Assembly: GCA_017398595.1 (NCBI GenBank)
Contig: JAFQFR010000013.1
Location: forward strand, 152-64,151
DNA from: Clostridia bacterium
Lineage (GTDB): Bacteria; Bacillota; Clostridia; Oscillospirales; CAG-272
Direction of reading: 5' to 3'
DNA: 64,000 nt
Shown here: positions 31,839 through 32,056 of the stretch, in pieces
Layout of the letters: each line of letters begins with the position of its first letter
How positions within the stretch are numbered: position 1 is the first letter of the stretch
Made by a program: the position numbers and the translations under genes
Notes under the pieces: model-generated
What the model saw: only the letters and a program-made list of their open reading frames with translations
Told to the model about the DNA's origin: nothing
The model's database searches: none

Positions 31839-31844
31839 GTGCAT

Positions 31845-31875
31845 AAAAAAATCCGCCTTCGGGCGGATTTTTTTA
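31845..31875 (+). terminator. Rho-independent terminator (left copy of a duplicated hairpin)
   Basis: AAAAAAATCCGCC-TTCG-GGCGGATTTTTTT, immediately after the SBP stop. Confidence 0.8.
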
Positions 31876-31878
31876 GAG

Positions 31879-32020
31879 GCTGTCGAAAAACCAAAGGTTT
31901 TTCGACAGAAAAGGGGCGCGAGTCTCGCGAGTCGCTCACCGCGACCGCCCCTGCAAGGAGTTTTAAAGCCGGCGCATGTCCGTCTTTAAAACAAGATTTT
32001 ATTAAAAAACTTTTTCGACA
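31879..32020. repeat. MITE-like interspersed element, copy 1
   Basis: Shares long identical blocks with 39370-39512. Both ends are inverted copies of TGTCGAAAAA. It forms three hairpins. No ORF is present. Confidence 0.7.
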
Positions 32021-32026
32021 CGCATG

Positions 32027-32056
32027 AAAAGATCCGCCCGAGGGCGGATCTTTTTA
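32027..32056 (+). terminator. Terminator hairpin (right, diverged copy)
   Basis: GAAAAGATCCGCC-CGAG-GGCGGATCTTTTT. About 80% identical to 31841-31875. Confidence 0.7.

Follow-up and report, generated by a model that had tools for sequence, protein, structure and literature searches.

How a non-coding element of about 150 bp comes to lie between two copies of one and the same hairpin is the question raised by a stretch of 64,000 nucleotides from a Clostridia bacterium of the order Oscillospirales (GenBank assembly GCA_017398595.1, contig JAFQFR010000013.1, positions 152 to 64,151), hereafter called the window. An earlier note on this DNA had interpreted the element as mobile but non-autonomous, duplicating a whole terminator of 25-35 bp on insertion, and had not recognised it as a described family. 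The first proposal is supported by four outcomes, namely further copies of the element, duplicated hairpins at other loci, an empty site and an autonomous partner; the second falls, since the element belongs with the insertion-sequence (IS) family IS1182, for which palindrome targeting is on record. By its sequence, the element is a MITE (miniature inverted-repeat transposable element) of the IS1182 family, and the two window elements are very probably non-coding passengers moved in trans by an IS1182-family DDE transposase that targets hairpins and duplicates them.

The window contains two copies of the element (146-151 bp; Table 1), whose core at positions 31879-32020 recurs at 39370-39512, and a 31-nt block of this core shows two exact occurrences in the window, whereas 100 shuffles gave none. 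The fold of each copy comprises three hairpins (HP1, HP2 and HP3) and, after them, an A+T-rich tail. HP1 is a left palindrome with 13-bp arms, CTGTCGAAAAACC-AA(A)-GGTTTTTCGACAG, made of the left terminal repeat and its own inverted copy; HP2 is G+C-rich; and in HP3 an A/T-rich stem carries a loop with the sequence GGC(G/A)CATGTCC. Between the copies, identity extends to 34 of 37 positions in the HP1 segment, 67 of 71 in the right block and 24 of 42 in HP2, whose stem is kept although it has diverged (outer GGGG...CCCC vs AAAA...TTTT). Selection on the hairpin, or template-switch 'correction' within quasi-palindromes, are possible reasons for this divergence with a retained stem. The extremities are inverted copies of the decamer TGTCGAAAAA, and comparison with about 40 relatives extends the inverted repeat 5 nt outward (sAGnn / nnCTG), giving the terminal inverted repeats sAGnnTGTCGAAAAA and TTTTTCGACAnnCTG, the right one being imperfect in copy 1 (CGCAT). 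The element contains no transposase open reading frame (ORF), and the longest coding stretch from the ATG in HP3 has 9 codons in the window, which rules out this ATG as a transposase start codon. The recurrence of the core, the left palindrome, the right block, the inverted ends and the pair of hairpins around copy 1 had all been read correctly in the earlier note.

The two hairpins that flank copy 1 are identical at 29 of 35 positions (83%), and the stem differences compensate one another, an A>G change being matched by T>C. On both sides of copy 2 stands a different hairpin of 25 bp, AGCACTTGGCAAAAGCCAAGTGCTT, repeated directly and without a mismatch (100% identity); this duplication had been overlooked, and it strengthens the case made from copy 1. 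A T-run is found only at the distal copy of this hairpin, and therefore the copy 2 element is, as predicted from the sequence, probably transcribed as part of a 3' untranslated region (UTR).

Related elements were identified by scanning one genome per species for the HP1 pattern TGTCGAAAAA-N4-12-TTTTTCGACA. The pattern was found at no fewer than 117 genome loci, most of them in Oscillospiraceae and related Clostridia, including the genera Flavonifractor, Pseudoflavonifractor, Lawsonibacter, Dysosmobacter, Oscillibacter, Intestinimonas, Agathobaculum, Butyricicoccus, Faecousia and Faecivivens, and one Flavonifractor metagenome-assembled genome (MAG) holds at least 13 such loci. The family architecture consists of CAGnnTGTCGAAAAA ends with the left end folded into a perfect hairpin; the related elements measure 126-273 bp, with the palindrome at one end and a third, inverted decamer at the far end, and their sequence variant is host-species-specific. 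Contigs of other assemblies that encode flanking proteins identical to those of the window end inside the window copies, from both sides (loci L002, L004, L005, L135 and L136), as is typical of a multi-copy repeat. The window element had no match among PLSDB plasmids, two window-specific patterns had none in viral contigs, and the element end sequence was not found in the literature. The window-type right block is absent from the JGI metagenomes, a collection from which the window organism itself seems to be missing.

Duplicated target DNA was scored where the 60-nt flanks of an element shared an exact direct repeat no shorter than 12 nt, with random placements in the same DNA as control. Such repeats, of 12-38 nt, were present at 42 of the 122 sites and at only 5 of the 2000 control placements, which bears out the earlier expectation that other copies would stand between duplicated local hairpins. 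Most of the longer repeats begin 5 nt from the decamer on both sides, and the intervening 5 nt are mutually inverted (sAGnn / nnCTG) and hence part of the terminal repeat. Complete flanking repeats coincide with the whole local palindrome to within 0-3 nt, as in AAGCGCCCGCCTTACAAAAGGCGGGCGCTT and AAAAGAGAGCCGTGAGGCTCTCTTTT, while the shorter exact matches seem to represent portions of duplicated hairpins whose copies later diverged. Since the flanking hairpins are unrelated between loci, they represent target DNA and not the element.

Some less typical elements were also seen. MITE-like elements with CAGGCTGTCGAAAAA ends are found in a 'Gammaproteobacteria' MAG (L026:2853-3009) and in a Planctomycetales MAG (L009:3370-3500), with flanking repeats of only 4 bp, TTAG and GTAA, respectively; these hint at an enzyme whose ordinary stagger is short and which makes a long duplication only when a hairpin is bridged. 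In locus L107 (1164-2180), a MITE at 1209-1411 shows a terminator hairpin on its left and, on its right, the first unit, truncated at its 5' end, of a CRISPR array with the repeat ATTTCAATCCACGCTCCCCGTGCGGGGAGCGAC and a period of 67. This copy looks recombinant, since its flanks are two different hairpins, and palindromic CRISPR repeats may also be targeted.

An empty site exists for copy 1. Locus L133 encodes a solute-binding protein (SBP; P0121) 96% identical to that of the window, and its stop codon is followed by a single hairpin, CATAAAAAATCCGCCTTCGGGCGGATTTTTTGATT, with the TTCG loop of the left hairpin in the window, and then directly by the promoter region of the LysM-CAP gene, with no element. 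The flanking hairpin thus occurs once in the empty allele, which makes it the target and not a part of the element. In the case of copy 2, all contigs with identical neighbour genes hold the element or break inside it; relatives of the PHP-domain gene (P0002 and P0004) are not syntenic downstream and gave no empty site, and L089/L114 and L131 were uninformative as orthologous loci.

The earlier note had suggested looking for a longer, autonomous version with TGTCGAAAAA at its ends. Such an element was found, an IS1182-family IS that likewise stands between whole-hairpin duplications. It was reached when a screen for direct repeats that are palindromic and lie an IS length apart led by chance to plasmid pXO1 and so to a transposase seed; this Bacillus transposase, used as a tblastn probe on all retrieved loci, detected a full-length homologue in L073. 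The L073 ORF scores 408 bits on the NCBIfam model NF033551 'IS1182 family transposase' (cut-off 270), and its product is 84% identical to P0266. More than 7300 close relatives are present in the protein collection, the majority of them from contigs only 1.5-2 kb long, in keeping with an IS that has many copies, and their precomputed Pfam domains are DUF772, DDE_Tnp_1 and DDE_Tnp_1_6. Earlier screens for a parent had been negative, whether they sought decamer pairs 0.3-4 kb apart with flanking repeats, ORFs clustering beside palindromes, long ORFs from the HP3 ATG, multi-copy ORFs among the loci, or a parent in the first 50 kb of pBtoxis. ISL3-like ends were ruled out, because the outermost bases do not fit.

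The IS of P0266, which is that of L145 and L148, has 1572 bp (L145:1126-2697). Its left end, CAGCCTGTCGAAAAAGTCCGGC-TAC-GGCTGGGCTTTTTCACA, is an HP1-like hairpin located about 35 nt upstream of the ATG, its right end reads ...GGGTTTCTCGACAGGCTG, ...GCAACCGGGTTTCTCGACAGGCTG, and the element ends are CAGCCTGTCGAAAAAG...CTCGACAGGCTG. The IS of L145, L148 and L153 start with CAG(C/T)CTGTCGAAAAAG and end with ...TC(T/G)CGACA(G/A)GCTG, and they are flanked by duplications of 40 bp (AAGCAGTCGCCAGTCCTTTTTCAAGGACTGGCGACTGCTT, L145), 25 bp (CGGCGCTGCCTGTCAGGCAGCGCCG, L148) and 31 bp (AACCGCCGTGCCTATACAAGGCACGGCGGTT, P0250 in L153), each of which is a complete palindrome. The ends (CAGCCTGTCGAAAAAG) and the fold-back terminal hairpin are therefore common to the IS and the window MITEs, and whole-palindrome duplications span 25-40 bp in the IS copies and up to 38 nt in the MITEs; the IS carry a transposase gene, whereas the window elements do not, and the interior of the latter (HP2, HP3 and the A+T-rich tail) showed no detectable similarity to the IS copies recovered. 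As a separate observation, the IS copies of L143 and L144 (1100-2760) show different hairpins on the two sides, the right flank of L144 being the L145 site, which suggests recombination between IS copies.

In MAG JAEWRY01, an intact transposase (L073) co-occurs with a MITE that shows an exact 33-bp duplication (L084). In L073 (1827-3640), the transposase-proximal end of a full IS1182-family IS is joined to a MITE-like unit (3350-3553) that shares about 90% identity with the MITE of L084; another MITE, which is truncated, follows from 3559. The transposase ORF of L073 has no stop codon inside the IS, as has been reported for IS1272. With regard to the origin of the MITEs, it is possible that some IS carry an extended 5' end, from the outer repeat to the internal HP1 arm, which is independently mobile; it is also possible that the elements insert into each other's hairpins.

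A second lineage of IS1182-family elements shows the same kind of duplication on Bacillus plasmids. The pXO1 element has 1558 bp and lies between cya and atxA (L126:15680-17301, positions 125679-127300 of the record), with a copy of a perfect 32-bp palindrome, ATAAAAACGACATATAAATATGTCGTTTTTAT, on either side. The broken ORFs of the element match NF033551 along the model, as in a pseudogenised transposase, and no CDS is given for it in the plasmid table; both ends are CAG...CTG hairpins, CAGAGTGTTGGGAAACCC-TTTA-GGGTTCCCAACACTCTG and CAGGCTGTGGAGAAG-ACTT-TCTCCACAGCCTG. Copies on two other Bacillus plasmids (L138 and L139) occupy different sites, with hairpin duplications of 37 and 32 bp. IS1627 as the name of the pXO1 element could not be confirmed and is not used here. 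Hairpin-length duplication is a trait of this IS1182-family group. The window elements, for their part, show the small size, missing transposase ORF, terminal inverted repeats, locus-specific duplication, empty site and multiple copies of a MITE, and they share with a transposase-encoding IS matching ends, the same target and the same kind of duplication.

The same anatomy might be read as a structured non-coding RNA gene, or a regulatory module of the 3' UTR, with three hairpins and two terminators of its own, spread by ordinary duplication. The + strand of both copies folds far better than shuffled sequences (z = -5.0 and -4.6), the HP2 stem is preserved through double changes, the HP3 loop motif GGCACATGTCC is retained on different stems in other subfamilies, and the position of the element allows co-transcription with the upstream gene. 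However, the - strand of copy 1 folds about as well as the + strand, as expected of palindromic DNA, and no Rfam 15 family reached its gathering score, the best being a terminator-type match to STnc370 with 38.4 bits against 54. The flanking hairpins, locus-specific and single in the empty allele, belong to the target, and the spread of the element is explained by inverted repeats, target duplications and IS with the same ends. Transcription is possible but unnecessary for the observations, and we consider this explanation very unlikely.

It is highly improbable that the flanking repeats were not made at insertion, but by a later duplication of the hairpin through slippage or recombination, or that the hairpin was carried along from a previous site. 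The 4-bp repeats of the L026 and L009 elements and the unlike left and right hairpins of L107, L143 and L144 would fit such an origin. Nevertheless, independent secondary events would not give the constant 5-nt offset seen on both sides of most of the longer exact duplications, a hairpin that is different at every locus has not travelled with the element, the IS copies likewise stand between exact repeats of 25-40 bp, and mismatched flanks are the product of recombination between two copies. An extremely improbable alternative is a repeat similar to repetitive extragenic palindromic (REP) elements and REPINs, mobilised as single-stranded DNA by an HUH transposase (Y1, RAYT or IS200/IS605-type) recognising HP1, which would suit the perfect terminal hairpin, resembling REP elements and IS200/IS605 ends, and the host-species-specific variants, as in REPIN populations, but which is opposed by the target duplications, the rule here and never left by single-strand transposition, by true terminal inverted repeats common with DDE (IS1182-family) IS, and by the lack of a Y1 transposase adjoining any copy examined.

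Mobilisation in trans by an IS1182-family transposase is thus the preferred explanation of the window elements, and the following results weigh against it. The window and L133 differ in length by 331 bp, compared with the 181-185 bp or so expected, and L133, although collinear in other respects, lacks a unique stretch of 150 bp (32057-32205) that directly follows the second hairpin of copy 1 in the window; a second indel between the two alleles must therefore be assumed for the surplus 150 bp. A promoter-like motif of the TTGACA type lies in this stretch, and no other copy of the stretch occurs in the DNA examined. The predicted empty site of copy 2, GTCAAA-AGCACTTGGCAAAAGCCAAGTGCTT-TTTGTATT, is absent from the JGI metagenomes. 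Copy 1 does not close on the right with the usual nnCTG, its last 4 nt up to 32025 being GCAT instead of nCTG; this GCAT may belong to the duplicated target instead of the element. The window subfamily resembles the recovered IS copies in the inverted repeats and HP1, and no further similarity was detected. No matching transposase was found in the 64-kb window, which is the sole part of this genome covered, and, in agreement with the earlier note, Pfam scans of 48 window ORFs (E<=1e-5) found no transposase or recombinase domain, with 13 ORFs giving no Pfam match; we infer that the genome of the window encodes such a transposase. Finally, IS1272, the only IS1182-family member whose targeting is analysed in detail in PMC4923244 and PMC5678879, removes part or all of the stem-loop without any duplication ('stem-loop replacing'), whereas here the stem-loop is duplicated.

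Copy 1 is located downstream of an SBP gene and upstream of the LysM-CAP gene, and copy 2 between the convergent PHP-domain and DUF4886 genes (Table 1); the genes around both copies are ordinary chromosomal ones. The SBP gene next to copy 1 has a paralogue in the window, with 74-77% DNA identity over repeats D1 and D2, and a GH43 gene lies between the two, in a cluster for carbohydrate utilisation. Elsewhere in the window, a 44-nt motif, TTGACA...TG(C/T)TAAAATTTTAACA, is found at 6746, 12485, 18720 and 19801, with a degenerate hexamer in two copies, and looks like a shared extended -10 promoter, not a mobile repeat.

Table 1. Positions in the window of the two MITE copies, their parts, the duplicated target hairpins and neighbouring genes.
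Feature	Position	Strand	Description
SBP gene, paralogue	26755-28260		
SBP gene upstream of copy 1	30327-31838		
Target hairpin, left, copy 1	31841-31875	.	GCATAAAAAAATCCGCC-TTCG-GGCGGATTTTTTTA; intrinsic-terminator-like; 3 nt past SBP stop codon
MITE copy 1	31876-32021	+	End at 32025 on the usual family boundaries
Left terminal inverted repeat, copy 1	31876-31890	+	GAGGC TGTCGAAAAA; matches IS end CAGCCTGTCGAAAAAG
HP1, copy 1	31880-31908	+	Perfect palindrome, 13-bp arms; full-length IS alike at transposase-proximal end
HP2, copy 1	31913-31951	+	G+C-rich; strongly diverged from copy 2, pairing retained
HP3, copy 1	31960-31992	+	Stem GTTTTAAAG/CTTTAAAAC; loop contains GGCGCATGTCC
Right terminal inverted repeat, copy 1	32010-32021	+	CTTTTTCGACAC
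Target hairpin, right, copy 1	32022-32056	.	GCATGAAAAGATCCGCC-CGAG-GGCGGATCTTTTTA; T-run after
PHP-domain gene	38313-39335	+	
Target hairpin, left, copy 2	39342-39366	.	AGCACTTGGCAAAAGCCAAGTGCTT
MITE copy 2	39367-39517	+	151 bp
Left inverted repeat, copy 2	39367-39381	+	GAAGCTGTCGAAAAA
HP1, copy 2	39371-39398	+	
HP2, copy 2	39404-39444	+	
HP3, copy 2	39451-39483	+	
Right inverted repeat, copy 2	39502-39517	+	CTTTTTCGACAAGCTG
Target hairpin, right, copy 2	39518-39542	.	Exact duplicate; TTTGT follows; terminator-like in simple scan
DUF4886 gene	39549-40229	-	

In the mechanism that we propose, the transposase would recognise the CAGnnTGTCGAAAAA inverted repeats, the left one backed by its own inverted copy (HP1), as in the full-length IS. 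The target would be chosen by shape and not by sequence, as a palindrome able to form a stem-loop, usually a transcription terminator. Two strand transfers would take place at the feet of the stem, on opposite strands and one palindrome-length apart, and extrusion of the palindrome would bring the two feet next to each other in space; gap repair would copy the entire hairpin onto both sides of the insert. The target may be an extruded cruciform, or paired hairpins attacked at their 5' feet ('pathway b', Wan et al. 2017, PMC5678879); a hairpin in single-stranded DNA, or plain duplex recognised through its symmetry, would be other possible targets. With the hairpin rebuilt on each side, both neighbour genes would keep a terminator-like structure, which probably explains why insertions are tolerated and build up at gene ends, where they would be near-neutral. 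A more speculative extension, which we advance with some doubt, is that the strand transfers run across a four-way junction (a cruciform foot, or paired hairpins at a replication fork), that the length of the duplication reads out that of the palindrome, that this group is the 'duplicating' sister of the hairpin-deleting IS1272, and that gene ends are saturable at nearly no cost. If this were true, the hairpin ends of the elements themselves would become targets, as would further palindromes such as CRISPR repeats, leading to nested and recombinant copies (L073 and L107), and the insertions would be a natural in vivo record of the palindromes that actually adopt the hairpin form.

Direct repeats of 0-60 bp are listed for the IS1182 family in ISfinder. 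Palindrome targeting by this family is already known: some of its members target palindromes according to Siguier 2015, as that work is cited in PMC4923244 and PMC5678879, and IS1272 selects hairpins or terminators without regard to their primary sequence (PMC4923244, PMC5678879). According to the model drawn in PMC5678879, joining of the 3' ends at the 5' feet yields a duplication of the entire stem-loop, and attack at the 3' feet its deletion, the duplicating pathway being only hypothetical there. The target of IS1272/TnSha1 of staphylococci is, as here, a hairpin and often a confirmed terminator; stem-loop replacement of the IS1272 type was nevertheless ruled out for the window elements, whose hairpin is duplicated instead of deleted. 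Known bacterial MITEs (RUP, Correia/NEMIS, SPRITE and Chunjie) resemble the window elements in their small size, non-coding sequence, inverted repeats, duplication, many intergenic copies and strong folding, but show short fixed duplications of 2-9 bp. Extragenic stem-loops also serve as landing sites for IS1397/ISKpn1 and IS110-family IS in REP sequences, for group IIC introns after terminators and in integron attC recombination. To our knowledge, none of these systems duplicates a whole stem-loop, and their chemistries differ from the one considered here. A REP/REPIN-RAYT system does not fit, since duplications are the rule and the associated enzyme is a DDE IS1182-family transposase. In a 2024 review of MITEs in prokaryotes, none is reported to have a duplication of hairpin length (PMC10969869), and whole-hairpin duplications in series of MITE or IS insertions are described neither there nor in PMC4923244 or PMC5678879.

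Whole stem-loop duplication, which had been drawn only as a possibility for the IS1182 family, is now seen at many natural insertions, of MITEs and of two IS lineages. Programs for finding MITEs or IS that expect duplications of 2-14 bp would probably set the boundaries of such elements wrongly, and the elements break metagenome assemblies at gene ends. The transposase appears to select its targets by the shape of the DNA and to cut at the feet of the stem, and the terminator left on each side of the insert may explain the pile-up of these elements at gene ends in abundant gut Clostridia.

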